Assembly (NCBI GenBank): GCA_951406725.2
Contig: OX597830.1
Location: 38,316,001 to 38,380,000, forward strand
Source of the DNA: Octopus vulgaris
Lineage: Eukaryota
Direction: 5' to 3'
Length of the DNA: 64,000 bases
Part shown: positions 8,817 to 59,068 of the stretch, piece by piece
Layout of the letters: every line of letters begins with the position of its first letter
Position numbering within the stretch: the first letter of the stretch is position 1
Translations under genes and position numbers: made by a program
Notes under the pieces: model-generated
What the model was told of the DNA's origin: nothing
The model's database searches: none
The model's input: only the letters and a program-made list of their open reading frames with translations

Positions 8817-10690
8817 TAGTTTTATTTTTATTTTTATAGCGTGCTTTCACTTCACTACCGAGCGCAGCTCTGTGTGCCTTGGGTATGTGCTGTGATTTGT
8901 TGTAATGCTCTGATGGTTATTGTATGGAAAGTGTTCTGCGTAGGATGTGGGCAGTGCCTAGTAGTGCAATTTTCTGTATGTTATATGTGTTTGTAAGTCC
9001 TGGTGTTTTTGTTATGTATTTGTCTGAATATTTTTTTATCATGCCTAATGCACCTACTATGATAGGAATTGTTTCTGTTTTCAGATTCCACATTCTAGTT
9101 ACCTCTATTTCCAGGTCTTTGTATTTTGAGAGTTTCTCCATTTCTTTTAGAGACACGTTGTCATCTGCCGGTATTGATACATCAATTAAAAAGCATTTTT
9201 TTTCTTCATGATCTCTGACAACTATATCTGGTCTGTTGGCCTTAATTTCTCTATCTGTGTGTATCGGCATATCCCAGAGTATGGTTGCTTTCTCGTTTTC
9301 TGTGACCTTTTCTGGTGTGTGCCTATACCATCTTTTTTCTGTTGTTATTCCATAATGTTGGCATAGCTTCCAATGTATGTAGGTTCCAACTCTGTCATGT
9401 CTGTGAATATATTCCTTCTTAGCCAGGACTGGGCAGCTAGAGATAATATGATTTATTGTTTCTTGTCTATCTCCACATATTCTGCAGTTACTTGTAATAT
9501 TTCTTTTCATTACATGTTTTTGGTAATTTCTGGTGGGGAGGCTTTGGTCTTGTGCTGCAATTAAAAATCCCTCTGTTTCTGCTTTGAGTCCTGAGCTTCT
9601 CAGCCATTGCTGGGATTTTTCTTTGTCTATTTCTTTTGCGTTTAGTTTAGTGCAGTATTTACCATGAAGGGGCTTTTCTTGCCATCGTTTTATCATGGTT
9701 CTTTGCTGTTCTGTTTTTAGTTTGGATTTCATTTGTTTTATAGCTTTTGTTGTTTCTTCATCTTCTTCTTCTTCTTCATGTTTATTAGGTGGTATGATTT
9801 CTTGTTTGTATTTGTCAGCTTCCTTAAATACTGAGAACAGTTTTTTGTTTTGCTCGTGTTTCGCCGCTATCTGGATCAGTTTTCCTTCCTTCTGAAGTAG
9901 ATATTTTTGCAGTCCTATGGTGGTTATTTTATAGTAGTTTTCCAGCTGTATAAGGCCTCTACCACCTTCTATACGTTGTATATATAGTCTTTCTATGTCA
10001 GATTTTGGGTGATGCATCCTAGATCCTGTCATTATTTTTCTTGTTTGCCTATCTATTTTGGTCAGTTCATTTCGTGTCCAGTTAAGGATATTGTAACTGT
10101 AACTTATAACTGGGACAGCTAAAGTGTTGATACCTATTATCTTGTTTTTAGCATTGAGCTCTGTGTTTAGTATTGATCTAACTCGTCTATAATATTCTTT
10201 TTTTATTTTCTCTTTCATTTGTGTGTGTTGTGTCTTATCTAGTTCATGGATTCCTAAGTATTTGTAAGTTTGGCTTTGGTCTAATTCTTTTCTTTCATTG
10301 GTTTTATCTAGTGTGATGTTGTTACTCTTAACTAGTTTTCCTCTTTTCATGGTTACTTTGGCGCATTTTTCTAATCCAAATTTCATATCTATTTCTTTGG
10401 TAAATCCATGAACTGTCTTTAATAGTGTTTCCAGCTGTTTGTCATTTGCAGCGTATAGTTTTAGGTCATCCATATATAAAAGGTGGCTGATCGTTTTGCC
10501 GTAACATTTATATCCGCATCCAGTTCTATTTAGCATATCAGATAGAGGTGACAGTGCCAAGCAGAAAAGGAGTGGAGAGAGCGTGTCTCCCTGGAATATT
10601 CCTCTTCTAATGGGGATGTCTTTGGTTTTCATGAGTCCCTCTTTTGTTTGGAGGTGTAGGACTGTTTGCCATATTATTCATTTATTCATA
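8813..10690 (-). mobile_element. 5'-truncated R4/Dong-clade non-LTR retrotransposon in a (TAA)n tract
   Basis: Contains the RT-REL ORF and a ~100-bp 3' UTR. (ATT)n tracts on both sides (8760-8812 and 10692-10850). Confidence 0.88.
8917..10632 (-). CDS. Non-LTR retrotransposon protein: C-terminal RT, CCHC zinc knuckle and REL endonuclease (5'-truncated)
   Basis: RT motifs GIFQGDTLSPLLF, YMDDLKL and YKYLG; CRICGDRQETINHIISSC (CCHC); RHD; RPDIV...LIDVSIP...K..KYKDL (PD-(D/E)xK). 571 aa with no stops. Confidence 0.93.
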   Translation of the reverse strand: MKTKDIPIRRGIFQGDTLSPLLFCLALSPLSDMLNRTGCGYKCYGKTISHLLYMDDLKLYAANDKQLETLLKTVHGFTKEIDMKFGLEKCAKVTMKRGKLVKSNNITLDKTNERKELDQSQTYKYLGIHELDKTQHTQMKEKIKKEYYRRVRSILNTELNAKNKIIGINTLAVPVISYSYNILNWTRNELTKIDRQTRKIMTGSRMHHPKSDIERLYIQRIEGGRGLIQLENYYKITTIGLQKYLLQKEGKLIQIAAKHEQNKKLFSVFKEADKYKQEIIPPNKHEEEEEDEETTKAIKQMKSKLKTEQQRTMIKRWQEKPLHGKYCTKLNAKEIDKEKSQQWLRSSGLKAETEGFLIAAQDQSLPTRNYQKHVMKRNITSNCRICGDRQETINHIISSCPVLAKKEYIHRHDRVGTYIHWKLCQHYGITTEKRWYRHTPEKVTENEKATILWDMPIHTDREIKANRPDIVVRDHEEKKCFLIDVSIPADDNVSLKEMEKLSKYKDLEIEVTRMWNLKTETIPIIVGALGMIKKYSDKYITKTPGLTNTYNIQKIALLGTAHILRRTLSIQ

Positions 10691-12486: not shown

Positions 12487-12679
12487 TATATATATATATA
12501 TATATATAAGAAAGTTTGTTTGTGAAAGCACGTGGGTGAATATATAAGAAAATAGTAAAGAGTGAAAAAACGACAGAAGGCTTAAATGTTAAAGAATATA
12601 TATATTTGCGTCAATATGCCTGGAGAATATTGGAAAATTTTTTTTCCCTTCTTATAATGACATAATTTTATAATGTTTA

Positions 12680-12718
12680 AAGAAAGACCGGTTTCGGATT
12701 TAGCTCTTCAAATTTCTT
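12680..12718 (-). ncRNA. Minimal hammerhead ribozyme motif in the inverted pLTR copy
   Basis: Reverse complement of the 14627-14665 motif, with one stem II mismatch (gc-taaat-cc). Confidence 0.5.
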
Positions 12719-12808
12719 GCGACGTAATGTTTATCTTTAATAGCGTTATCCTTGTTTTTTTGCTACGGAGAGTTCTAAATAAGGGAAGGTAGTACGTGAT
12801 TTCTTCCG

Positions 12809-14491
12809 GTGTATGGTCTGCCAAAAATTCATAAAAGTCAAATTATAAATGAAACCATTAAAAAATCACCAAAGACATACATACACACACCCAACCCGGG
12901 GGACCTAAAACTACGACCCTTTGTAGCTGGCCCATCCTGTGAAACACACAGACTAAGTCTACTTATGAACATCCTCCTGAAACCCTTCCTTAAACATATC
13001 GATAGCCATATCAGAGATGACTTAGATATGTTAAACCACCTTCCAAAAAAAGCCAAGGAAGAAACAATCCTGGTTTCATTTGATGTAGTAAAATTGTATA
13101 CCAGTATACCTCATGATTATGGACTGGAGGCAATACAGTTCTGGTTAGACCAATTTCCGGAAGAAATACCAAAAAGGATCAGTAAAGAATTCATTACTAA
13201 ATCAATTGAATTCATCCTACACAATAACCACTTCATGTTTGACAATACATTTTACCGTCAAAAATCCGGAATTGCTATGGGTACAAGGGCAGCACCAGTC
13301 ATTGCGAACTTAACAATGGGATACATGGAAATAATCATTTACCAGGAATCTTTATCAATCTTTGGAAACCCCCTCTCTCAATACATAAAAGAGAACTGGA
13401 AACGATTCTTGGACGATTGTTTTATTCTCTGGAATGAAAACACAGATAAACTCTTAAAATTTAAAATCCTATTGAACAGCATAAACCCAAATATACAGTT
13501 CACAATGGAATACAACCAAAAGCAGCTCCCGTTCTTGGATGTACTAATTAAAAAAATTAACCTTAAAATAGAAACAGACATTTTCTACAAAGCCACAGAC
13601 GCCAAACAATACCTTCTCTTTAATTCATGCCACCCAAGACACACAAAAACAAACATCCCCTTCAACCTTGCAAGAAGGATATGCACAATAGTGTCAGAAC
13701 AAAATACCAGGAACTTCAGACTGCAAGAACTCAAAAACACCTTAATTGACAGACATTACCCAGCTCAACTCATAGAGGATGGGATCAGACGTGCAACAGA
13801 AATCAACATAGAAACTTTAAGAAAAGTTCAACACAACAACACACCTTCTCCGAAAATACTACCTTACATATCTACATACAACCCCAGAAACAAAGAAGCT
13901 TTCACCATCATCACCCAGAATTTACCAATACTTCATAAAAACCCCAAATTAAAGGAAATTCTAAACATACACCAAATCATTAAAAGCTACTAACAGCCTA
14001 AATCACTTAAAAAGATTCTCACAAAGGCAAAATTATCTTCTGAAATTACGGATGCAAAAGTTAAAAAATGTGGTAGATCGAACTGTGCAACATGTCCTAA
14101 CCTACTAGAAGGATCAGAATACTTCTTTAAAGAGGGACAGAAATTCAAGATCAAATCTAACTTTACCTGTGCCTCTGAAAACATAATTTATGTCATAAAA
14201 TGCTCGGGCTGCCACCAAGACTACGTGGGGTCCACGGGACTATCACTCAGACGTAGATGCACACTGCATCGACAACAGATTGCATTCCCAGAATATAGAA
14301 TGATACATTTTAGTGAGCACATTGAGAAATGCGCAAAGCAACTACAACCACAATTTTTAATCTTTCCATTTTACCAATGTGCTTTCGGATCATCAACACA
14401 AATTAGACTAAACAAGGAAACATTCTTCATTGAAAAGTACAAACCCAGACTCAACTATCCAAACATAATAATACAGAGAAATTCACACTAA
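12809..14491 (+). pseudogene. Penelope-type RT + GIY-YIG endonuclease ORF with one in-frame stop (13991-13993)
   Basis: YGLPKIHK, LRP, SFDVVKLYTSIP, GIAMGT, RFLDDCF, LPFLDV and SCHP. The same frame continues past the TAA into CGRSNCATC...NIIYVIKCSGCHQDYVGST...RRRCTLH. Confidence 0.92.
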
Positions 14492-14626
14492 GAGAAAAAG
14501 GAAAAAAAAATTTTTAAAGCGATTATCTCCCTTACACCGGAAGAAATCACGCACTACCTTCCCTTATTTAGAACTCTCCGTAGCAAAAAACAAGGTTAAC
14601 GCTATTAAAGATAAACATTACGTCGC

Positions 14627-14665
14627 AAGAAATTTGAAGAGCTAAATGCGAAACCGGTCTTTCTT
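14627..14665 (+). ncRNA. Minimal type I hammerhead ribozyme motif in the Penelope pLTR
   Basis: aagaaa-t-TTGAAGA-gc-taaat-gc-GAAA-ccgg-TC-tttctt: stem I aagaaa/tttctt, palindromic stem III, C3-to-U core variant. Confidence 0.6.
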
Positions 14666-14795
14666 TAAAAATGATAAAATTATGTCATTATAAGAAGGGA
14701 AAAAAATTTTCCAATATTCTCCAGACATATTGACGCAAATATATATATTCTTTAACATTTAAGCCTTCTGTCGTTTTTTCACTCTTTACTATTTT

Positions 14796-14831
<36 letters not shown>

Positions 14832-16700: not shown

Positions 16701-18030
16701 TTTTGACGGTTTTGATTGTTCTGTTGCCTTCATTTTGCAATTATGTGGCTTGTGTAATCGCATGAAAATTAAGTATATCACCGTTTTCTTCTTATATGAA
16801 TAATATACAATGTATAATAAATATCTTCCGTTGTTTCAAGCGTCGATATTTTAATCTCAAAATATATGTAGCCCAACCATCGGATATTTACTGCTCTTGT
16901 GACATTGTGTGAGTCCAGTATTGAAATAACATACGTATATACATATTGTAATAATGGCTTATATATTTGCGAGCATGGGTTTAATATCTGAGAGGATGGA
17001 TGAAAACGGGTTCCACCTTAGCACAGAAATTTATGGATATAAAATAAAATCGTTCTTTTTAGTGTAAATTTTAAAATTTACAGACATACTCGTGCACGCG
17101 CACACACACGCACACACATACTCACACACACGTACGTGTACGCCCAAACATACCTCTTGCGAAATACCCCACCATCTACATAAAATTCCGAGGTTAAATA
17201 ACAGAACTGCCATTTAATTGTTGCATATTGAAACGCTATTTTCCAGTTTTTAATGTCAATCTACCTGTTTACACAATACATTTAATGGCACCAGTAGACT
17301 TACAAATCCCCTTTGCAATGCATACAACAATAACTCTGTAAATTCAAACACTGTGGGTGAAAATGCAAATTTAGAAACATTTTATGAAGGAAAAACTGAA
17401 CCTTTGCAATGTGGAATATCCAAACCAAGAGAACCACAAACAATGAATTAGGGGTACTGGTGATGTTCATTATAGATTTTGTTTTCCTATTAACTTGTAC
17501 TTGATTCGCGAGATAAAATATTCACGTGTTGCATCTTGCATTAACCAGCAAGTAAATCAATCAAATAACGTAATATCTCACTTGAGAAAAGTATGTTTTT
17601 TTTTCCTGTAATGGCAAGGTTCTCAGATAAATTACTTTCCGGTCTGCCAAACTTAAACCTTTCTCACCCAAACCAGCACACTGCCAGACTATACGAATCT
17701 GTGCGTAATAAGCTGGAGATCAAATGGACATGATCAGTTATATCGTCCGTCACGTGTAAGATCGTTGATTTTAGAGTTTGGAGACAGTCACCAATGTATG
17801 TTCCAAACAAAACCTTGTTATCCTTCAGATTTAGAAAATAGCTCAGAAGCGAGGCAAATGATTTTCATCTGGCCTACAACAAAGTTATATAATTTTAAGT
17901 GTCGATACAGATCAGATCAAGAACAAAAATGTGCATCTCTCTCTCTATCTCTCTCTCTCTCTATCTATCTATCTGTCCATCTCTCTCTCTCTCTCTCTCA
18001 ATCTCTCTTTCTCTCTATCTCTCTCTTTTA

Positions 18031-18074
<44 letters not shown>

Positions 18075-18105
18075 GTACATATATGTATACATATGCATGT
18101 ATATA

Positions 18106-18141
<36 letters not shown>

Positions 18142-18194
18142 TGTATGTGTGAATGTATGTATGTACTATGTGCTTGTGTGTGTGTATGTACATA

Positions 18195-18337
18195 TCATTG
18201 TGCCTGGGGAGAATCATTTTCTTTTAATGTCTTATTATTTAACACACTCACCATTTCAATTTCCACTCATTTACTTATTTATTTTTTGTTAAAGTTTCGT
18301 CGCGCCTTGTAACCTATCCAATAGTCGTTGATTCTGG

Positions 18338-18340
<3 letters not shown>
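18195..18340. repeat. Dispersed repeat fragment (homologue at 63715-63860, partial at ~46480-46530)
   Basis: Shared cattttc.tttaatg.cttatt..ttaacacactcacc..ttt.atttccactcatttactt..tattttt...aagtttc. Confidence 0.6.
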
Positions 18341-18385
<45 letters not shown>

Positions 18386-19164
18386 GGGGGGTGTATGTAG
18401 GTATGGGAAGTTAAATAACATTTTGCAGAGGAGGATTGCGCCTCTGAGGAAACGGGACACAAACCGAAATCGGTGTAATTATTTGCCAACGAAATTAGGT
18501 CTGCAGATTCTCTCATCGTCCCAGTGGTTCAACAGCTTTCTCCATAGTGATAGCAAGAGAGTTAGCAAGGAATACGTATAACAAATATTGCCAAGTCTTC
18601 TGTGAACACAGTACAGAGAAACTGATTAGGCGCATAATTAAATTCAGGTCTCACCACATGATCCCCGATATAACTTTCGATACCCCAGAATCTACTGGAG
18701 CAAAAAATGATTTTAAACATTACTCGTAAGTTCGCTCCGATAGATTTCCCCGGAGGAGAGAAACTTACATCTTCTCTGTCAAATCATATGTAAAAATTGC
18801 TACACACTGAATTTATGCACTTCATTATTTTCATGAATGAAAACGGAAAACTATTTCACAAAAATATTTTACACCAGTTCTGCCTCAAAAATTAGCTTAG
18901 AGATCAACATCTGGAAAGCTTAGTCGCGTACACGTTAATTCATGCCATTATCTATTTCACTGATCAGGTGACCCCCCCACCCCTGTTTAACGAAAATCAG
19001 CAGATTGTAATGGAGTCGACCAGAAAATGCTAGTTGCTCAAAGTCACACAGTGGGATCGAAATAACTTCCTCGGGATTCAAAATGAACTTCTAAAATAGA
19101 AATTGAACACACTGTCCAGTACATAGGCGCCCGCGCACACACATACACACACATTAAATGTTGT

Positions 19165-19680
19165 TTTCATAAGGCCAGTAATTTCGGGGAAGTGGGAAAT
19201 CGATCACCTCGACTCCCGCTGTTCAGCTGGTACTCAAGAACCCGAAATGGGAAAGGTGAAGTCAACGTAGGCCGTATTTGAACTCACAACGTAACGGCGG
19301 AAGGAGTGCTGCTAAGCATTTTCTCAGACGTGCTAACGAATCTGCACGATCGCTGAATAGTACATATGTATTTTAAATATTGGTTTCAAATGTTGGCCTA
19401 CAGCCAGCAATTCCGAGTGAGCGGATTAATCGTTTACATCGACCACAGATATCAACTAATATTTATTTCATCGATCTCGAAGGGATGGAAGGCAAAGTTG
19501 ACCTTATCTGAAATTGAACTCAGAACGTAAAGAAAGACAAAATACTCTAAAGCATTTTGTCAGGTGTGTGAAGGGTTCTGCCAGTTCACCGCCTAAAATA
19601 TATATTTTAAATACTGATTTCAAATTTCGGAGAAGGAGGAAAGTCCATTACATTGGCTCCTTTACTCAACTGGTACGAGT
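19165..19680 (-). mobile_element. Tandem degenerate family-B SINE units
   Basis: Repeated tttgaactca.aacgtaa...gtgctaacga and tattttaaata.tg.tttcaaat blocks about 210-230 bp apart. Confidence 0.6.
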
Positions 19681-19921
19681 TCTGCCTTAAAATTGGGTCA
19701 GAGATCAACATGTAGAATGTTCAGCTAAATACACGTTAATTCATACGATTGCTTATTTCACTGATTAACGGAAAGGAATACAAAACATACATGCTCAAAA
19801 AGGACAAACATTTCGATGAACCTAATTACCTCGAGTATTCGAAGTGATTTTTTAAAAAAACGAATCGAAGCACTGCGACTACTTAAAATATAGAATTATA
19901 TACAGACACACACACACACAT

Positions 19922-19971
<50 letters not shown>

Positions 19972-19994
19972 TTCACATTCAGATATATATATAT

Positions 19995-20190
19995 ATTTGA
20001 GAATTTTAGAAAATCAAAAGTTGAAGACAGGGGTATGAACAACAGGCAAGTGTTTTAGTTTGACGCACGGGAAAATGAAAAGTCTTTAACGTTTCGAGCA
20101 TACGCTCTTCAACAGAAAGGATTAAGAAAAAATATATAGAGACAGAATGAAAAAAAATTGTAGATTTTACCGGTCAATCATGGCGAATGA
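19995..20190 (-). mobile_element. Solo Penelope pLTR-like fragment with hammerhead motif (20084-20119)
   Basis: Minus strand cttt-CTGTTGA-a-gagc-gtat-gctc-GAAA-cg-TT-aaag. Next to (TA)n; same design as the 35360-35395 motif. Confidence 0.6.
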
Positions 20191-20224
20191 TTGGAAAGGA
20201 AAAACGGGTTGAAAGAAAGGGTGA

Positions 20225-20287
<63 letters not shown>

Positions 20288-20309
20288 TAATAATAATAAT
20301 AATAATAAT

Positions 20310-20750
20310 ATATTGGTTTCCCAATTTCGCACCGGACCAGGAATTCCGAAAGAGCGGGAAAATCGATCACATCTACTCCCGGTGCTCGATCGTCGTCATA
20401 TCTTTTGATCCGGAAATGATGGGAATTGAAGGTGAACCTTGTGAGTGTTTGAACGCACAACATGACGATCGAAGAAATGCTGCTGAGCACTCTATCCGGC
20501 GTGCTCTCGCCGTCAAGAACATATATTTTAAATATTGATTTCAAATTTTGGTGAATATCATCAATTTCCGGGGATGGGTTAAATCGATTACATCGACCTT
20601 AGTGTTCAATTGGCACATATTTTATATGCCCCGAAAGGGGATGAAAGATAAAGTCGACCTCGGCGGAATTTGAACTGAGAATATGAAGACGAACCAAATA
20701 CTGCCTATCATTCTATCTGGTGTGCTAACGATTCTGCCAGCTCTCCGACT
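20310..20750 (-). mobile_element. Two tandem family-B SINE copies
   Basis: aaagtcgacctcggcggaatttgaact...gtgctaacgattctgccagctc at ~20650-20745, and a more decayed unit at 20310-20515. Confidence 0.7.
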
Positions 20751-20782
20751 AGAATATATATTATAAACATTGAACATATACT

Positions 20783-21146
20783 CTTTTACTTGTTTCAGTC
20801 ATTTGACTGCGACCATGCTTGAGCACCACCTTTTAGTCGAACAAATCGACCCCAGGACTTATTCTTTGTAAGTTTAGTACTTATTCTAACAGTTTCATTT
20901 GCCGACCCGCTAAGTTACGGGGACGTAAACACACCAGCATCGAATGTCAAGCGATGTTGGGGTGACAAACACACAACACACACATACACACACACACATA
21001 CATATATACATATACACGATGGGCTTCTTTCAGTTTCCGTCTACCAAATCCACTCACAAGGCTTGCCCGAGGTGCTACGCAGTGGGGCTGAACCCGGAAC
21101 CATGTGGCTGGTAAGTAAGCTACTTACCACACAGCCACTCCTGCGC
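20783..21146 (-). mobile_element. SINE family A (internal deletion)
   Basis: Reverse complement of the 5151-5587 family. Confidence 0.85.
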
Positions 21147-21553
21147 CTATATATATAATTATCACTATGTGTGTGTGAGTGCGTGTGTATGTGTGTATTT
21201 TTTAGAAACACACACACATAACTGCAAATATATGCACATATATACAAAGAATATATAATTATACATGTCTTCATATTATATTTGTAAGGAAACTTGTAAA
21301 ACTTATTCTGCGATACACAATTTTCCATAAAATCCAAGGTCTCTTTTCTATTTAGTAAGTAAAAAAAGAAAGACACAAAGACTCTTTTCAATAGATGTTA
21401 ATTATAGCTTGCTCTAAGTATATGAAAAAGATGAGTCATGAAATAAAGTATGTCCTATATACAACTCCACGTTAATGCACACACATACACGCATACAGAC
21501 GGATGCATGTATATGGTATTAAACTTCTAAATTCACAGCCGCATATATATATA

Positions 21554-21605
<52 letters not shown>

Positions 21606-21763
21606 ATAAAATAAATATAAGAGAGTGGTCACTATATTGATCACCCTAGCACCAGTTAATCCAAAAGGTTTCAACCACGAAAAATACATGTTTCCCATGA
21701 AAGCCAGTACGACTGTTAGCTCACACGGACAGGGCAAATAAAAAATAACAAAAATACAGATTA

Positions 21764-21843
21764 TTTTGGGACAATTGTTTCGCTATTAATGAATTAAATG
21801 TAATATTACTTACAATAATCCATTTGTAGCTCTTCAGCCAAGA
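21764..21843 (-). ncRNA. Type I hammerhead ribozyme
   Basis: Minus strand ttgg-CTGAAGA-gcta-(~40 nt loop)-tagc-GAAA-caattg-TC-ccaa: intact core, GUC site, palindromic stem III. Confidence 0.8.
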
Positions 21844-22297
21844 CTATCTGGATGAAATCCACTCAATCACACGCCAGATTTTACCATAACGATAAATACG
21901 CGTGCGGTTCAATTGATTACATCGGACGTTATAATTCAAATGCCCCAACCAACAGCGCGCCAAACTCTCACGGAAAACAAATACAGCATTTAGAAATAAA
22001 TGCAGCATAATTATAATTAATTAATAAGGGTGAGAGAATTAGATACTAATTTAATAGTATATTTATTCCACACCAAGTGGCCTAGTGCTACGAGAAACCT
22101 GGATTATTATAATATTTTATAACATATTATAATATTTTCACAAAATAAATATAAGAGAGTGGTCACTATATTGATCACCCTAGCACCAGTTAATCCAAAA
22201 GGTTTCAACCACGAAAAATACATGTTTCCCATGAAAGCCAGTACGACTGTTAGCTCACACGGACAGGGCAAATAAAAAATAACAAAAATACAGATTA

Positions 22298-22377
22298 TTT
22301 TGGGACAATTGTTTCGCTATTAATGAATTAAATGTAATATTACTTACAATAATCCATTTGTAGCTCTTCAGCCAAGA
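22298..22377 (-). ncRNA. Type I hammerhead ribozyme (second tandem copy)
   Basis: Identical to 21764-21843. Confidence 0.8.
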
Positions 22378-23165
22378 CTATCTGGATGAAATCCACTCAA
22401 TCACACGCCAGATTTTACCATAACGATAAATACGCGTGCGGTTCAATTGATTACATCGGACGTTATAATTCAAATGCCCCAACCAACAGCGCGCCAAACT
22501 CTCACGGAAAACAAATACAGCATTTAGAAATAAATGCAGCATATTACATTTAATTCATTAATAGCGAAACAATTGTCCCAAAATAATCTGTATTTTTGTT
22601 ATTTTTTATTTGCCCTGTCCGTGTGAGCTAACAGTCGTACTGGCTTTCATGGGAAACATGTATTTTTCGTGGTTGAAACCTTTTGGATTAACTGGTGCTA
22701 GGGTGATCAATATAGTGACCACTCTCTTATATTTATTTTGTGAAAATATTATAATATGTTATAAAATATTATAATAATCCAGGTTTCTCGTAGCACTAGG
22801 CCACTTGGTGTGGAATAAATATACTATTAAATTAGTATCTAATTCTCTCACCCTTATTAATTAATTACATATATATATATATATATACGCATGTATGTAT
22901 ACATACATGAAGTATCTTTTTTTTTATATACGCATATATATATAAGTGGTGCATATGTATCTATATAATTGATGAAGAAAAATTGAGGTAAAGAACAGTT
23001 CCATGCAATAATATAGAGTATACATTACGCATTTAATAGATGTACTATAGCTTAGTTACATTGCAAATCAAACTTTTTCCTGTTTCCACATCTTCATTTA
23101 AAGTATCAAAGATTTTCTTCATATCCCTTGCTATATTACGTAAATGTAGGATTCCAACATCATCA

Positions 23166-24262
23166 GGCGTAGGAGTGGCTGTGTGGTAAGTAGAAAGAAG
23201 AAGAACGGGTCATCGCAGAGGGGAGATGATGTGCGGTCTGCATGTCCCGAAGTTGTGCCACCCACGGTGGAAGAAACGACCCCCACCCTTAAATATGATC
23301 AATTAATTATCATTTTCTACAAGGGCGGGGAGGTGGAAAGAATAGTAGAAGAACATAAAAAGACAGTAGATATGCCCTTCACACGGGATCCCGAATGGTC
23401 TCCATAGATAGCTGTGGAGGTCATTAGGTTTCCCTTGTGGGAAACGCTTAAAGGATTTGAGGAGGAGTGTCGCATATGTCCGGATGGCCCTTACACGACT
23501 TACATGTCCTATATGAGTGAGGCACGGGAAATGGCGGGATACAGGAACTCAAGCGGCATTGAACATAATGATGAATATATCGATGGATATATCGAAGAGT
23601 AGGAGGTGAAAAAGCCTCGTTAGAGGGTTTGAAACTTCATCTTATTGTATTATTTGTAATGGTTTATAACCTCAATTGTGTTTTTTAAAAAAAAAACATG
23701 TTAAGTAAGAGGTTTTAGTGCCTCCTTCTTGTAAGAGGTCTGAAACCGCACATTGATTTTTAAATAAAAAGAAAACATGTTTTCGAGAAAAATCCAATCG
23801 GCGGGTGTTGGGTTCCGTCTCTCATTTATTCATTTTATTTAATTTTCATTCATTAATGTATTTGTCAAGCCCGCAAAGCTACACACTCCTTGTACTGCCT
23901 GTAATGACAAATCTTATGAAATAAAGTAGCTTGCTTAGCAACCACATGTTTCCGGGTTCAGTACTGGCCGACTATAGCCTTGTGAGTGGATTTGGTAGTC
24001 GGAAACTGAAAGAAGCATGTCGTATATATGTATATATATATGTGTGTATATATATGTGTTTGTGTGTCTGTGTTTGTCCCCACCAACATCGCTTGACAAC
24101 CAATGCTAGTGTGTTTACGTCCCGGTAACTTAGCAGTTCGGCAAAAGAGATCGACAGAATAAGTACTAGGCTCACAAAGAATAAGTCCTGGGGTAGATTT
24201 GCTCGACTAAAGGCTGTGCTCCAGCATGGCCACAGTTAAATTACTGAAACAAGTAAAAGAGT
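23166..24262 (+). mobile_element. SINE family A split by a ~730-bp insertion
   Basis: Head ggcgtaggagtggctgtgtggtaagtag (to 23193) resumes as aagtagcttgcttagcaaccacatg (~23924) and runs to the tail at 24262. Confidence 0.8.
23194..23925 (+). mobile_element. Retroposed insert with ORF remnant, 3' UTR and terminal AATAAA; aagtag target-site duplication
   Basis: ORFs 23183-23407 and 23414-23602 share one frame separated by a single TAG. The insert ends gaaataaa, and aagtag is duplicated at both junctions. Confidence 0.6.
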
Positions 24263-24482
24263 TAATAATATTTACGTTTAAAACTCGTATGTTTCCATAT
24301 GTGTTTCTGAAGTAGTCGGCATATGTATGAGAACATTTTCATATAATTGTTTATGCAAGGTAAAATAGGCTCTACATTTTCTTTTACTTGTCTCAGTTTT
24401 TAGAATGCGGCCATACTGGGATACTACTCTTAACACAAACACAGACACAGACGCACACAGACTACGCGCCCGCGCACACACA

Positions 24483-24588
<106 letters not shown>

Positions 24589-24609
24589 TGCAGATGTATA
24601 TGCACGTAT

Positions 24610-24770
24610 GTACGACGGGCTACTTCCAATCTCCATCAAGCAAATTCATTAACAAGGATTTCTTTGGCCCGAGACTATTGCAGAAAATATTTTCCCGAGG
24701 TGACATACAGTAGGACTGAACCACACACCGTTGTGACTGAGAAGCAAGCATCTTACTAGACAGCCCCATA
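24610..24770 (-). mobile_element. Degenerate SINE family A head
   Basis: acgacgggctacttcc...aaattcattaacaagg...ggactgaacc, homologous to 21015-21140. Confidence 0.55.
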
Positions 24771-25354
24771 GATACATTTCTTTGAGTTTCTTTTTTTTTT
24801 TCCCCGAAGTGGTCAAGGCAAATCTATTTAGTTCTTTCAATGAATTCTCCCCTGGGGGATGTCAATTTGTGATCACTATCTTCGTAAATCACATAACGTA
24901 TCTACAATTTTATCAAAACTATATAATACGTATACACAAATACGCACACACGCACACACAGGCACGTACAATCACACATATACACCTATGTTTCGTATAC
25001 ATCACAATTCAAGTTTTAAAAGTAAAATTTAGGCAATTGGATGAATTTTGCAAATGTACATAAGTAAAACCTAGACCATCCATTAAACCTGCGTATCATA
25101 CACTGCATTAACACATTAAATTAGTGTATTGATATGGTTTTAATAATTTTGTCCCTTCCATCGAGGTCGACTTTGCCGTTCATCCTTTCGGATGCGTACT
25201 GCGGTCGATATAATCAACTGAACCCCTCCCCCCAAATTTCTAGCCTTGTGCCTAGAGTACAAAAAATATTTTTTGCACCTTATATTCAATGACACAGACA
25301 TATATCCATAATAATATATATCTATCTATCTATCTACCTCCCCCCGCTCTTTCT

Positions 25355-25397
<43 letters not shown>

Positions 25398-25471
25398 TTA
25401 TTTGAGGAAATAAAATCCAAAGTTACAAGGAAAAAAATTCAATTTAGAAATACTAAATCAAATTTCACACA

Positions 25472-25522
<51 letters not shown>

Positions 25523-25702
25523 TAGAAAAGAAAACCCTAATTCTTCATAATGAAGAATTTAATTACACCATCTACAAAATTACATATAATATAAAAATCA
25601 AAATTCAAATAACAATAAAATGTCAAAGATTAGGTAAGTTGCAAAAAATAATAATAATAACGTATATAATAGGTATATAAACGTATAAATATAATATAAA
25701 CG

Positions 25703-25758
<56 letters not shown>

Positions 25759-25849
25759 GTATATTTGTACACGCATAAATATACGGATGTCGAACACGTA
25801 AATCATTCTGTCCTAAGATGACAAAGCCCCTAATGTGAATAATGATGAT

Positions 25850-25948
25850 AATAGTAATAATGATAATAATAACAACAATAACAAAAGTAGTAGTAATGTT
25901 AGTCGTAGTTATAGTTGCAGCAGCAGCAGTAGTAGTAGTAATAGTAGC

Positions 25949-25983
<35 letters not shown>

Positions 25984-26100
25984 CAGTAGCAGCTGCAGCA
26001 GCAGTAGTAGTAGCAGCAGTGTCAGTAGTAGTAGTTGTAGTTGTAGTAGTTGTAGTAGTAGCAGTAGTAGTAGTAGTAGTAGGAAGAAGAAGAAGAAAAA
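25850..26100. repeat. Compound (AAT)/(AGT)/(AGC)/(AAG) trinucleotide microsatellite
   Basis: Seen directly in the sequence. Confidence 0.9.
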
Positions 26101-26624
26101 ACAAAACGAATAGAAGGAATGTAAAGGTGACGGTAGCTATATTTGGTAAGACTGCAAGAAAGCATTTGATAATATATCGCAGTAATGGCTTTCATGGGAA
26201 CATTAACCGATTTTCTTATTTTTATTTCTGTTATAACTTTAGAGCTAGTGATGAAATCCTCCGAATTAAAAATAAAAAGCGGAAATGAATGATTAGATAG
26301 CGTGAAAATCCGTTAGGTAATACTGCCTCGGCTGTATTTTCGCTTGCGTCGATCGTTTTAAAAAGCTTGCTCATAAAAAAACTTGATCAGCTTATGAGAT
26401 TGATAAGAAGAGTACGAGAATACATCATGTCTATATAAATGATCTCATTTACACGCCAAAAGAAAAGCAATAACAGATTTAGTTTTTTTCCTTTTTCACA
26501 AATAGTTAAACTATAGAGCAGATATACTTTTGGGAAGAATAAGGGTGAAAGCAGGGTAAAATGTTAAATAAATTACGGTGATATCATCAGATCACTAAAT
26601 AATAGTGTGGTAATTTTTTTTATT

Positions 26625-27220
26625 CCAGGCACAAAATTTTGGGGGAGGGGGCCAGTCGATTACATCGACCCCAGTACGCAACTGGTACTTAATTTATCGA
26701 TCCCGAAAGGATGAGAGGCAAAGTTGACCTCAGCAGAATTTGAACTCAGAACGTAATGACAGACAAAATACCGCTAAACATTTCGTCCGGCGTGCTTACA
26801 TTTCTTATTTCTTTATTGCCCGCAAGTGGCTAAACATAGAGGGGACAAAGAAGAAAAGACAAAAGGATTAAGCCGATTACATCGACCCTAGTGCATAAAT
26901 GGTACTTAATTTATCGACCCCGAAAGGATGAAAGGCAAAGTCGACTTCGGAGGAATTTGAACTCAGAATGTAATGACAGACGAAATACCTATTTCTTTAC
27001 TAACTACGAGGGGCTAAACACAGAGAGGACAAACAAGGACAGACAAACGGATTAAGTCAATTATATCGACCCCAGTGCGTAAGTGGTACTAATTTAATCG
27101 ACCCCGAAAGGATGGAAAGCAAAGTCAACTTCGGTGGAATTTGAACTCAGAACGTAGCGGCAGACAAAATAACACTAAGCATTTCGCCCGGTGTGCTAAC
27201 GTTTCTGCCAGCTCGCCGCA
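26625..27220 (-). mobile_element. Cluster of three nested/tandem family-B SINEs
   Basis: Three copies of atcgaccccagt...ggtacttaatttatcga.cccgaaaggatg...aatttgaactcagaa starting at ~26660, ~26880 and ~27065. Confidence 0.85.
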
Positions 27221-55137: not shown

Positions 55138-58100
55138 TTTTTTTTTCTTCTTTCAAACTTGCTTCCATTTCTTGCCGAGCGTCTTCCCGACTCCTAGGGC
55201 AAAGAAACTCATAGTATACATTGGTAGGCCATTAAACCAAACTCAATAGTTCGTTCATATTTTTTTTTTTTTAAATTAAAATACATGAGCAGCAACAGTT
55301 CTCACATCGACAATGCTCTTCTCAATACGTGTAATGTACCAGTTAAGACAATCTTTTGCACTTCTTGCAGGGATGGTAAGCCAGGGATCATTCTCATATA
55401 ATTTTCGGTTCCCTTCTTGATCATTCCTAGTGCTCCTACGATCACTGGTATTGTAACCGCCTGGAGATGCCACATTTTCTCAATTTCAATGAGTAGGTCT
55501 TTATATTTTCTGAGCTTGTCAAACTCTTTCGCTGAGATATTATGATCACAGGGGATGCTCATGTCGATCAATAAGCAAACTTTATTGTTTTGGTCTTTCA
55601 CAACAATATCTGGTTTATTGGCCTTGATGGTTCGGTCTGTATGTACTGGAAAGTCCCACAGAATGGTTACATTTTCTCCTTCAGTTACAGCCTCAGGGTG
55701 GTGATTATACCACTTGTCGGCAGTTTTGATATTGTAATGCCGACTTATTAGCCAGTGTAGATATTGGCCAACTCTGTCATGTCTTAATTTATTCTCCACT
55801 GGTGCTAAGACTTTACATCCAGAGATTAGGTGGTCCACTGTTTCAATCATGTCATTGCAGAATCGGCATTTTGGGTCTGCTCCATTTTTCATCACATTGG
55901 CCTGGTAGTTCCGGGTTAATAGGCTTTGATCTTGAGCAGCCAGGATGAAACCTTCGCTCTCTGCTTTTAGCCCTGAGCTCCGTAGCCACTGATGGGTTTG
56001 CTTCTGGTCAACATCAGCTTATTTGCTGCGGGTCACATATTTGCCGTGCAGAGGTTTCTCCTCCCACCTATCAGCCAATTGCTCGTGCGCTTTTTTCGTT
56101 GCCATCATTCCCTCGGGTTGTTCAGTTTGGGTATCCTGCACGAGATCAATAGCAAATGTTTTGCTTTCCTTTATGATAGAATGAAGCTTCTTTCGTCTCT
56201 CGTGATTCTCCACGAGCTTTAGCATCCAGTCATTCGATATTTCGAGATATTTGGCCAGTCCAATTGTGGTTGTGTTGTAAGCTAGTTCAAATTGGATCAG
56301 GCCTCGACCTCCTTGGGCTCTGGGAAGGTAAAGGCGATCTACGTCTGCCTTTGGGTGGTGCATCCTATTACAACTCAGCAGCTTGCGTATTTTCCTATAT
56401 ATATTCTTTACTTCACTCATATTCCAGTTCAACACATTGTAGCTATAAGTAACAACTGGAACTGCTAAGGAATTTATAGCTAACACCTTGTTACGTGCAT
56501 TTAGTTCAGATTTCAGGACTGCACGAACTCTCCTATAACATTCCTTCCTGAACTTCTCTTTCATGCTTGCATGCTGAATACCAGAGCCTTCATTTATCCC
56601 TAAATATTTGTATGTTTGTTCTTGCTCAAGCTCTCTTATAACTGTGTCAACATCTAACACGTCTGAATTTTTGGTCTTCACTTTCCCTTTCTGGAAAGTG
56701 GCCTTGGCACACTTCTCAAGTCCAAACTCCATCCCGATGTCATCGCTGAATGCTTTCACGGTGCGCAATAGGCCTTCAAGTTCATTATTGTCTTTACCAT
56801 AAAGTTTTAAGTCATCCATATAAAATAGATGGCTTATTTTTTTATTGGCAATTTTATACCCATACCCTGTTCTGTTTAATTCACTTGTAAGGGGTATTAG
56901 GGCTATGCAGAATATTAAAGGTGAAAGTGAGTCACCTTGAAAAATTCCACAGTTGATGTTTATATTTTCTGAGGCAAGTACTCCATTAGAGTGGTATAAT
57001 TGGAGATTCGTATTCCACAACGACATATTGTGCTTCAGGAAGTTTGAAATCACAGGGGAAATTTTGAAGATGTCCAGCGATCTCAAGATCCATGGATGCG
57101 GTATACTGTCGAAGGCCTTTTTATTGTCAATCCATGCGGTGCTGAGATTTCTGCGCTTGTTGTGACAGTTCTCAAGGATCATACGATTGATTAGCAGTTG
57201 ATCTTTGCATCCGTAAGAGCCTCGGCGGTACCCTTTTTGTTCAATGGGGAAAATATCGTTCTTCTCCATGAATGCATATGTTTTCTCCGCCAGGATAGAT
57301 GTTAGGATTTTATACGTGGTGGATAGACAGGTTATAGGCCGATAGTTTTTTGGAAGGTTGGTTTCGTTATTCTTTGAGAGTAGGTAAGTAATGCCACTTG
57401 CTAACCATTCAGGTGTTTTCTTTGGGTCTCTCATAATTCCATTGAGCATTTGAACTAACTTACCGTGTGCGCATGGGAGCGATGCGAGCCAGAAATTCGG
57501 CACCCTATCTTTACCGGGGGATTTCCAATTATGGGCCTTCGTGAGTGCCTTTCTTAGGTCTACTATTGTGATGTCTTCCCATGCTTGTTGTTGTAAATTT
57601 AGGTAGGATCCTTCAGTTTGTATAATCCAGTCTGCATTTATGTCGTACGTCTTCTTGTCACTCCAAATCCTTTTCCAAAAGTTTGAACTTCTTCCATGGG
57701 AGGGGGGTCTTTAACGGTTACTTTCTCCTTCCCTATTTCTCTGTAGAATTTTTTGGCATTGGATGTGAACAGCTTATTTTGCTTGTAAAACTGGTTTCTC
57801 TTCTCAAATCTTCGTATTCTTTCGGCTTTTGCTTGGACTTTTTGTTTCAGCGTTTCTTTTATTGATATCAGTTCTTCTCTTGGTGAGGATCCAAATTTTC
57901 TCTTCATCTTTCTTCCTGTTCTGGATCTTACATCATTTCCACATATTAGTTCATTTAATATTGATATTTCCCTTTTCATAAATTCAATCTCTTTTTCAAT
58001 TTTACTTCTCCAGGTTTGATTTCTTCCCAGGTTTTGTTTCCTTTGTTTTTTCGGGGGCATACAGCTGGTTTCAATTGCCCTAGCAGAAGCGTAAATAATT

Positions 58101-59068
58101 TCATTTAACTCAGTAAAATCAGGTTTTAATTCTCGTATTATTTCATTTGTTACATAGTTGCCAATTTGGATTTGTTTTTTATTTTGGTTTGTATTTGAGA
58201 GTTTATGAAGTGGTTCTCTATCATTCATACTTGTATGTCTTACAACTTCAAGCGTATTCAGGATTTTCTGCCTCATTTCTGCCTAGACTCTCTGTGTTCT
58301 TCAGCAAATGCGAGATCTTCAGTTACTGTTGTGTTTTCGTTTTCCTGGCTATCTTTAACAGGTACAATAGAATTTCTTGTATCTTCAGGCCTTTGCGTAC
58401 TTTGGTCAGATGGCAGTCTTTCAATTAAGCCTCGTGGCGGGCTATACTGTTCATCTGATTCTTCATTTCTTTTGTGTCTTATATTTATGTCATTTTCCGT
58501 TGCGTGCTTGATCGCGCTTATTTCACTGTCTGTGAGTCTGTTATTTCTAAGGATATCCCTCCTCACATTTGCTAATTTGTTCTCGTCCAAATAGGGCCTA
58601 CTGTCTTGATTCCGTGTTCTCCATATACTGTAAGAGTTTGCGGTGTGTCTCTCTTGAGATGGCCTACCTAATGCATAGTAATAAGCGTATATTACTTCTT
58701 TATACTCTTCTCGTGTCCATTTGTTCCGCTTACATTTTACTTTCTGTAGTGGTTGTGGTGGTGAACTTGGAGGGGTCGAGTTGGGGGATTTCCCGTTCAA
58801 GTGACCATCCATGTCCGTATTCGGAGAAGAGTTTGTGCCAGTTGATGACTTTTCGATCCCAGGCTGGCTCTTCCCTGGGGGACGCGCTTCCAGATTAACT
58901 ATAGGACAAGCGATTTGGTATACTGATTTAGTTTTCCTTTTAGTTTCCAAAAACATTTTGGTGCTACGATAATGTTATCAATTTTTAGCTTTGATTGGCT
59001 CGTGGGGAGACGGCCATCACTGCGGTTACAATTATAATCGTACCATTATAGCAGCCGTAGTCGGCTTA
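55138..59068 (-). mobile_element. Near full-length R4/Dong-clade non-LTR retrotransposon (frameshifted)
   Basis: Colinear N-terminal region (KWTREEYKEVIYAYY), RT (NYRPITCL, KAFDSIPH, GIFQGDSLSPL, YMDDLKL), CCHC (CRFC...HLISGC), RHD and KPDIV...LIDMSIP REL. (TAA)-type repeats at both ends. Confidence 0.92.
55302..58956 (-). pseudogene. Single RT-REL polyprotein broken into four ORF pieces (58273-58956, 57638-58276, 56019-57503, 55302-55895)
   Basis: Consecutive minus-strand ORFs. The last two are homologous to the 8917-10632 protein but clearly diverged. Confidence 0.88.

Follow-up and report, generated by a model that had tools for sequence, protein, structure and literature searches.

What kind of sequence is the perfect 534-bp repeat found in a 64,000-nt stretch of the Octopus vulgaris genome (contig OX597830.1, positions 38,316,001 to 38,380,000; hereafter, the window), and how did it get there? 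A repeat carrying a hammerhead ribozyme motif, present in many copies and inserted with the inverted arrangement typical of Penelope-like elements (PLEs), is likely to be a retrozyme moved by PLE enzymes. Hence, the locus is probably a recent insertion of a multicopy noncoding repeat, a non-LTR retrozyme likely mobilised by PLEs. Self-cleavage, a circular RNA, and the identity of the mobilising enzyme are parts of this reading that we infer. Retrozymes as a class, and the proposal that they stem from PLEs, have been published before.

Architecture of the Element and Its Target Site

The element spans 21608–22867 and consists of 1.75 direct copies of a 534-bp noncoding unit and a 327-bp inverted copy, the two parts meeting head-to-head. 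All stretches common to the copies are 100% identical: 21608–22009 is repeated at 22142–22543 (402 bp, with a period of 534), and 22541–22867 is the exact reverse complement of 22014–22340 (327 bp). A preliminary description, made from the sequence by eye, had already reported this period, the absence of differences, and an inverted partial copy at the 5′ side, and all three are upheld. Its ends, 21605 and 22868, are corrected here to 21608 and 22867, and its tandem units stand as direct repetition at 534 bp but amount to fewer than two whole ones.

Read on the minus strand, the long arm is composed of a segment A (22543–22142, 402 bp), a segment T or "tail" (22141–22014, 128 bp), a 4-bp linker (T and linker together occupying 22010–22141), and a second, downstream A (22009–21608). 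The 5′ end of the long arm is that of the upstream A, located at the inversion junction, and its 3′ end is that of the downstream A, at 21608 (terminus 1, the short end). The inverted, 5′-truncated arm lies on the plus strand (22541–22867) and contains the last 199 bp of A followed by T, with its 3′ end at 22867 (terminus 2, the long end). The 5′ ends of the arms meet at a 3-bp overlap (22541–22543), and both 3′ ends point outward into (TA)n. Past the overlap, ~12 of 15 bases match, imperfectly (22010–22030 versus 22544–22564), which suggests that the long cDNA extended further and annealed to the other arm.

The sequence at 21586–21605, which closes a (TA)n tract (21543–21605), recurs at 22866–22885. 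This target-site duplication measures 18 bp, or 20 bp if one counts the TA shared with the element end, and two extra bases (21606–21607) stand between its left copy and the element. As it lies within a microsatellite, where a single C interruption makes it recognisable, the duplication is good, not beyond doubt. The (TA)n flanks had been noticed in the preliminary description, which overlooked the duplication. No stop-to-stop frame wholly within the element is longer than 69 aa, the one unit frame scanned has no match in Pfam, and no tRNA was found in the element.

The Hammerhead Motif and the Predicted Monomer

The minus strand has hammerhead cores at 22371 and 21837, as parts of two complete type I hammerheads placed 534 nt apart in consecutive units. 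Copy 1 lies at 22291–22385 (core at 22371–22365, predicted cut between 22304 and 22303) and copy 2 at 21757–21851 (predicted cut between 21770 and 21769). The type I descriptor matches twice in the 64-kb window, both times in the element, and never in 60 block-shuffled windows. The inverted arm contains only the 3′ half of the motif (predicted cut site after 22577); the earlier claim of an intact hammerhead in each unit thus holds for the two minus-strand motifs and fails for this arm. Rfam gave no match at E ≤ 10 on 21606–22868, and over 18000–27000 it returned microsatellite-driven miRNA noise only. The assignment is therefore based on the descriptor and on the published consensus. The descriptor finds no second ribozyme on the opposite strand. 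Metagenome matches to the 20-nt core motif (L001 and L002, one sequence) were dismissed as chance, since a 22-nt match comes without the rest of the ribozyme.

Helix I has five of its six proximal positions paired, followed by an internal loop and five further pairs, and is longer than the 4-bp stem I first described. Helix II has 4 bp, and a palindromic loop caps the 2 bp of helix III. The long loop II seen earlier corresponds to a 41-nt insert that replaces loop 2 and is predicted to fold into a 2 × 2 internal loop and helices of 9 and 5 bp. Helix I has a U at position 7, and the internal loop of helix II is closed by an A; these two bases may form the tertiary contact between loops 1 and 2, which the 41-nt insert may disturb. 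Such an extended helix II puts to the test how far a hammerhead can do with an internal loop instead of a terminal loop 2. The canonical layout, with helices I, II, and III as here, has been described as functional in the form of a dimer (PMC4209133), and canonical motifs are attributed to retrozymes and minimal ones to PLEs (PMC7229834). Among nine predicted retrozyme dimers of Xenopus, one was reported to cleave in vitro (10.64898/2026.07.22.740005).

The predicted energy of the ribozyme fold is −18.2 kcal/mol; another fold of these 95 nt, the minimum-energy one, lies 2.6 kcal/mol lower. The predicted cut-to-cut monomer of 534 nt (21770–22303, minus strand; GC 33%) adopts a branched fold with a 44-pair rod and 67% of its bases paired, with a z-score of −6.5 and none of 100 shuffles equally stable. 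The antisense strand is also more stable than its own shuffles (−110 versus −78), so that stability by itself cannot pick the strand.

A Multicopy Family in Public Sequencing Runs

The evidence for a family comes from contigs of public runs, 24 of which are listed. Twenty of these, from nine studies and under two organism labels, contain 62–98% of the unit's words; one of them, X1, may come from the source of the window. Four (X1, X2, X12, and X14) were compared with 22341–23150, which includes nearly the whole unit once plus flank; the comparison of contigs covered 80% of X1 and 76% of X12. With the (TA)n flank masked, none of the contig pieces listed spans the junction of this insertion with its flank. 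Summed depth over the unit, which is not a copy number, ranges from 96,000 to 1,300,000 in X1 (flank, 49.9) and from 101,000 to 1,260,000 in X12 (flank, 43.8), and one single contig of X12 has 69 times the flank depth. Even if one allows for a 31-fold overcount, copies of the unit number at least in the tens and probably in the hundreds. Together with the 100% identity and the longest inner frame of 69 aa, this depth agrees with the initial view of a young, noncoding, multicopy, and retrozyme-like repeat.

X2 (43.8 Mb), which is classed as RNA by guess only, no listed run being recorded as RNA, contains a single record of 563 nt; its two ends share 30 nt, so that it closes to a cycle of 533 nt with a 1-nt deletion. 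Between the end of T and the start of A it has 20 letters, as predicted from the window (16 masked plus 4; compared by length only), and record 19 of X14 (organism B) has a join of the same 20 letters in length. Since the join length is equal in X2 and X14, the 534 period is a family trait. The recurrence of the join, along with a depth far above the flank, shows that the unit is neither single-copy nor an assembly artefact, an outcome that the preliminary description had named as fatal to its reading. The closed contig of X2 has neither flanks nor branches, and this is compatible with a tandem array as well as with a circle. X2 has the allele of the window at 16 of the 17 listed variant sites (see following), including nine of the ten where the X12 majority differs; it thus appears to fit a homogeneous expressed subfamily better than a DNA skim, for which majority alleles and many branches would be expected.

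Other differences were seen among the runs. The window's allele at 22439 accounts for 33% of the summed depth in X1 and for 0.2% in X12, figures that are noisy because both runs were partly read; the difference may reflect a recent expansion of a subfamily that differs between the samples. The loose ends of X1 at 22588 and 22679 (three contigs) lead to a related variant where a palindromic hairpin of ~30 nt appears to replace ~90 nt just after the ribozyme. This variant, which would have lost one arm of the rod, is possibly a shorter sister retrozyme.

Marks of PLE-Type Insertion

An inverted 5′-truncated copy, a partial tandem, a one-sided tail, and a bias for (TA)n are described as marks of PLE insertion (PMC8557442; PMC3846280). 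The element has this layout, with an inverted 5′-truncated copy at its 5′ end, a one-sided tail, and a microsatellite target. The joints listed for X1 and X12 extend the pattern to other loci: one of the 11 is normal continuity and the other ten are head-to-head (antisense to sense), four in X1 and six in X12, at depths of 12.9–47.5, as for single loci. The ten have differing pairs of breakpoints, with 0–3 shared or 3–6 inserted letters; each is one contig, whose short side of 21–28 letters is under the 30-letter caution threshold. The Penelope-style insertion first suggested from the inverted end is thus backed by the truncated arm, the target duplication, and ten further joints. In X14, a loose end at 22739 shows an A end continuing into (TA)n at a different site. 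In all ten listed inversion joints, one breakpoint falls within monomer positions 295–468 and the other within 7–230; pairs within the same half are absent from the listed joints, versus about half expected, which may be an effect of the listing. Arm starts shared at the start of A were considered as a mark of an RNA 5′ end and abandoned, since 2 of 22 is at the estimated chance level.

The 936-nt long arm crosses the predicted cut site twice and the 327-nt short arm crosses it once; hence, a linear monomer produced by cleavage did not serve as the template, which was either circular or a multimer left uncut. The anatomy of the insertion fits circle and multimer alike; the results from anole favour uncut RNA, whereas the retrozyme literature favours circles. 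The purified anole PLE protein is reported to cut and extend both strands at AT-rich DNA, to initiate at two internal sites, which set the limits of the tail, and to insert uncut RNA, cleavage being unnecessary (PMC11167929). Until now, the case for PLE mobilisation of animal retrozymes has consisted of ribozymes in common, co-occurrence, and pLTR trees. In the present data, a probable retrozyme family bears, at many loci, the mechanical footprint left by PLE integration. Since one of the insertions extends over more than one complete turn through the cut site, the circle-template model becomes testable with the existing in vitro PLE assay.

A 5′-truncated and broken PLE lies 7 kb from the element (12510–14800, plus strand), also in (TA)n, with RT, a CxxC linker, and GIY-YIG, and with one stop between the RT and the CxxC/GIY-YIG part. 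The CxxC linker points to Neptune or Nematis (as these are described in PMC8557442). Its inverted pLTR is 97% identical over 277 bp and its tail is ~30 bp long, and both pLTRs contain a degenerate, minimal hammerhead-like motif with a U at core position 3. It is inserted in the same layout as the 534-bp element, and apart from a short resemblance in the ribozyme core the two have no significant sequence in common. This indicates that PLE machinery exists in the genome and is not proof of a partner. The neighbouring PLE was rejected as a parent, as 24 and 30 of 200 shuffled sequences score as high as the unit does in alignments with its two pLTRs.

Sequence Variants and the Fold of the Ribozyme Strand

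The variant list comprises 17 substitution sites that reach at least 10% in some run, ten of which are transitions. On the ribozyme strand, the window has G where others have A at eight of these ten, and U where others have C at the remaining two; none goes in the opposite direction. All eight variant G are paired in the predicted fold, six with U and two with C. G·U pairs hold 6 of the 8 variant G, versus 25 of 100 among all G (p = 0.003; ensemble permutation, p = 0.0001). Because the variants concentrate at G·U pairs, the fold of the ribozyme strand appears to be constrained. There is no overall excess of such pairs in the fold, of the kind that long-term editing would leave (25 of 179, or 14%, versus 18% in shuffles). 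None of the 17 common variant sites falls in the 93 ribozyme bases assayed, a weak result (p = 0.03) in which edge effects are possible.

ADAR editing followed by reverse transcription leaves A-U pairs as G·U and A·C mismatches as G-C. It is conceivable, if doubtful, that a retrozyme RNA circle is edited from A to I by ADAR in its stems and that the RT of a PLE makes these edits heritable in the genome. The count of A/G versus C/T changes (8:2) is by itself not significant (p = 0.11). If the window lineage is the derived one, at least eight A-to-G among ten tolerated transitions have a probability of 0.016 to 0.0004, depending on the mutation bias assumed, in a test of direction that is post hoc and based on ten unrooted, unphased events. 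X14 carries both alleles at five of the eight G/A sites. The 5′ neighbour preference of ADAR is not evident at the eight sites (3 U, 2 A, 2 G, and 1 C versus a background of 42, 27, 15, and 16%), and the 3′ preference is mild (G in 3 of 8 versus 14%). Selection on structure explains the placement of the variants and, less well, their direction; the A/G bias is also compatible with a biased RT error or with older subfamilies having changed from G to A in a stabilising way.

If editing were the cause, the history of the subfamilies would amount to a ratchet that turns only from A to G, with changes in the RNA driving it, the variant record would be direct proof of edited RNA as a template for transposition, and the family would provide a case of RNA editing reaching the germ line via a mobile RNA. 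The diversity of mussel circles has been discussed with RNA editing as a possible cause, the text as available giving no analysis of A-to-G changes or of stems (PMC7229834). In the main texts searched, no published report was found of tested editing in retrozymes or of edited copies fixed in genomes.

A Probable PLE-Mobilised Retrozyme and Its Rival Explanations

By its sequence features the element is a metazoan non-LTR retrozyme, and it fails as an autonomous PLE, as it has no frame with RT and GIY-YIG. Its history was probably as follows. A tandem locus would be transcribed on the hammerhead strand, as the probable RNA run suggests, and two hammerheads, probably acting as a dimer via the palindromic helix III, would excise a monomer to be closed by a host ligase, by analogy with characterised retrozymes. 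An RT–GIY-YIG protein of a PLE would then nick both strands of a (TA)n tract 18–20 bp apart, a distance given by the duplication itself, the enzyme being presumed. From each nick, cDNA synthesis would begin inside the template, at one of two AU-rich sites that are separated by 128 nt and correspond to the two observed ends. One cDNA would reach the 936 nt and the other the 327 nt seen in the arms, from a circle or an uncut multimer, and the two would be joined head-to-head at short homology, as is seen at this locus and in the ten other listed joints. With two ribozymes in tandem, the insertion could itself yield a new monomer.

The closest rival keeps the non-autonomous PLE parasite and dispenses with circles: the RNA that is mobilised would be a long, linear tandem transcript left uncut, and the hammerhead would be weak or protein-dependent. 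That a PLE protein uses unprocessed RNA in vitro, with two internal starts (PMC11167929), agrees with this scenario, as do the eight of nine Xenopus dimers left uncleaved (10.64898/2026.07.22.740005), a predicted ribozyme fold that is not the minimum-energy one, and an insertion anatomy that is the same for both templates. One would then not expect a core and helices that are intact, a ribozyme devoid of the 17 variant sites (weakly, p = 0.03), or a closed X2 contig free of flanks and branches; moreover, the retrozymes of mussel, coral, and axolotl are reported to be largely circular (PMC7229834). We therefore regard uncut transcripts as an unlikely template, and processing by the hammerhead remains the preferred account.

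The preliminary description had also asked whether the unit is simply the pLTR of a known Penelope family. In that case the element would be the pLTR and tail of an autonomous PLE, with a tandem produced by template jumping in this one insertion. The layout is indeed that of the neighbouring PLE and of published PLE copies, and the long arm begins at most 5 nt from the end of the other arm on the unit. However, the T-to-A join has equal length in X2 and in X14, from organism B, and the stretch from the ribozyme to the end of the tail is not spanned by any open frame, whereas the tails of PLEs have been described as lying in the start of the frame (PMC11167929; PMC3846280). The hammerhead is canonical, not minimal, and none of the 14 loose ends listed, of 115, carries either join into new sequence, although, with 22852–22911 also masked, a connection to a reading frame may have escaped notice. 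An autonomous parent with this pLTR may exist, and the element being that and nothing else is improbable. More improbable still, to the point of being barely credible, is a satellite-like or DNA-level repeat, of fold-back or rolling-circle type, with an incidental or dead hammerhead. DNA tandem arrays also give closed contigs, and none of the listed runs is recorded as RNA; yet the target duplication, the outward 3′ ends, and the variable head-to-head truncations are marks of retrotransposition, the variants match G·U wobble pairs, which can form only in RNA of the hammerhead strand, and the hammerhead motif is never matched in 60 shuffles.

Relation to Known Elements

The 534-bp repeat can be regarded with some confidence as a real, young, and new retrozyme family with marks of PLE integration. 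No published description of it was found, including in PMC11722881 and PMC7761336, in a search of mainly open-access main texts; nor was any report of inverted, PLE-type retrozyme insertions found in the main texts searched. As in the metazoan non-LTR retrozymes described so far (PMC7229834; 10.64898/2026.07.22.740005), the unit is noncoding and tandem, with a canonical type I hammerhead per unit, a GC content below 50% (33% here), a monomer predicted to be strongly self-paired, a target duplication above 4 bp, and a PLE in the same genome. Its length of 534 nt exceeds the 150–450 bp given in the first of these works and falls within the 51–972 bp of the second. It differs from their main-text descriptions by the 41-nt insert in loop 2, a predicted hairpin, and by the inverted head-to-head layout of its insertion. 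Mytilus retrozyme circles also come from an invertebrate and are heterogeneous in sequence, but measure 350–390 nt (PMC7229834). In squid, 235 hammerheads of Rfam type have been counted in the genome (PMC6962438).

A partial tandem with an inverted 5′-truncated copy is also described for insertions of Penelope/Poseidon, Neptune, Nematis, and Naiad (PMC3846280; PMC8557442; PMC11167929), and the one-sided tail, two internal starts, (TA)n targets, and type I hammerhead are shared with endonuclease-bearing PLEs. Unlike these, the element has no RT or endonuclease frame; its tail is about four times longer (128 bp versus the usual 30–40 bp), its duplication is of 18–20 bp versus 8–10 in rotifer PLE copies, and its hammerhead is canonical where theirs are described as minimal. 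Chlamys MRC1 provides a parallel, as a non-autonomous PLE derivative with pLTRs and multicopy head-to-tail insertions; Chlamys elements, however, come from green algae and generally have a 3′ sequence in common with autonomous families (PMC8557442).

Other Repeats in the Window

The window contains two frames of non-LTR retrotransposons with RT domains, at 8917–10677 and 55302–58974, both on the minus strand and both ending beside an (AAT)n/(TTA)n tract; the former has an unbroken stretch of 586 aa. A region at 23190–23620 is richer in GC and has short frames of 85 and 64 aa, with no convincing match in Pfam. SINE-like repeats are found at 20560–21150, 23960–24220, and 26828–27171, and one pair of them, inverted, ~3 kb apart, and 85–89% complementary, flanks the element.
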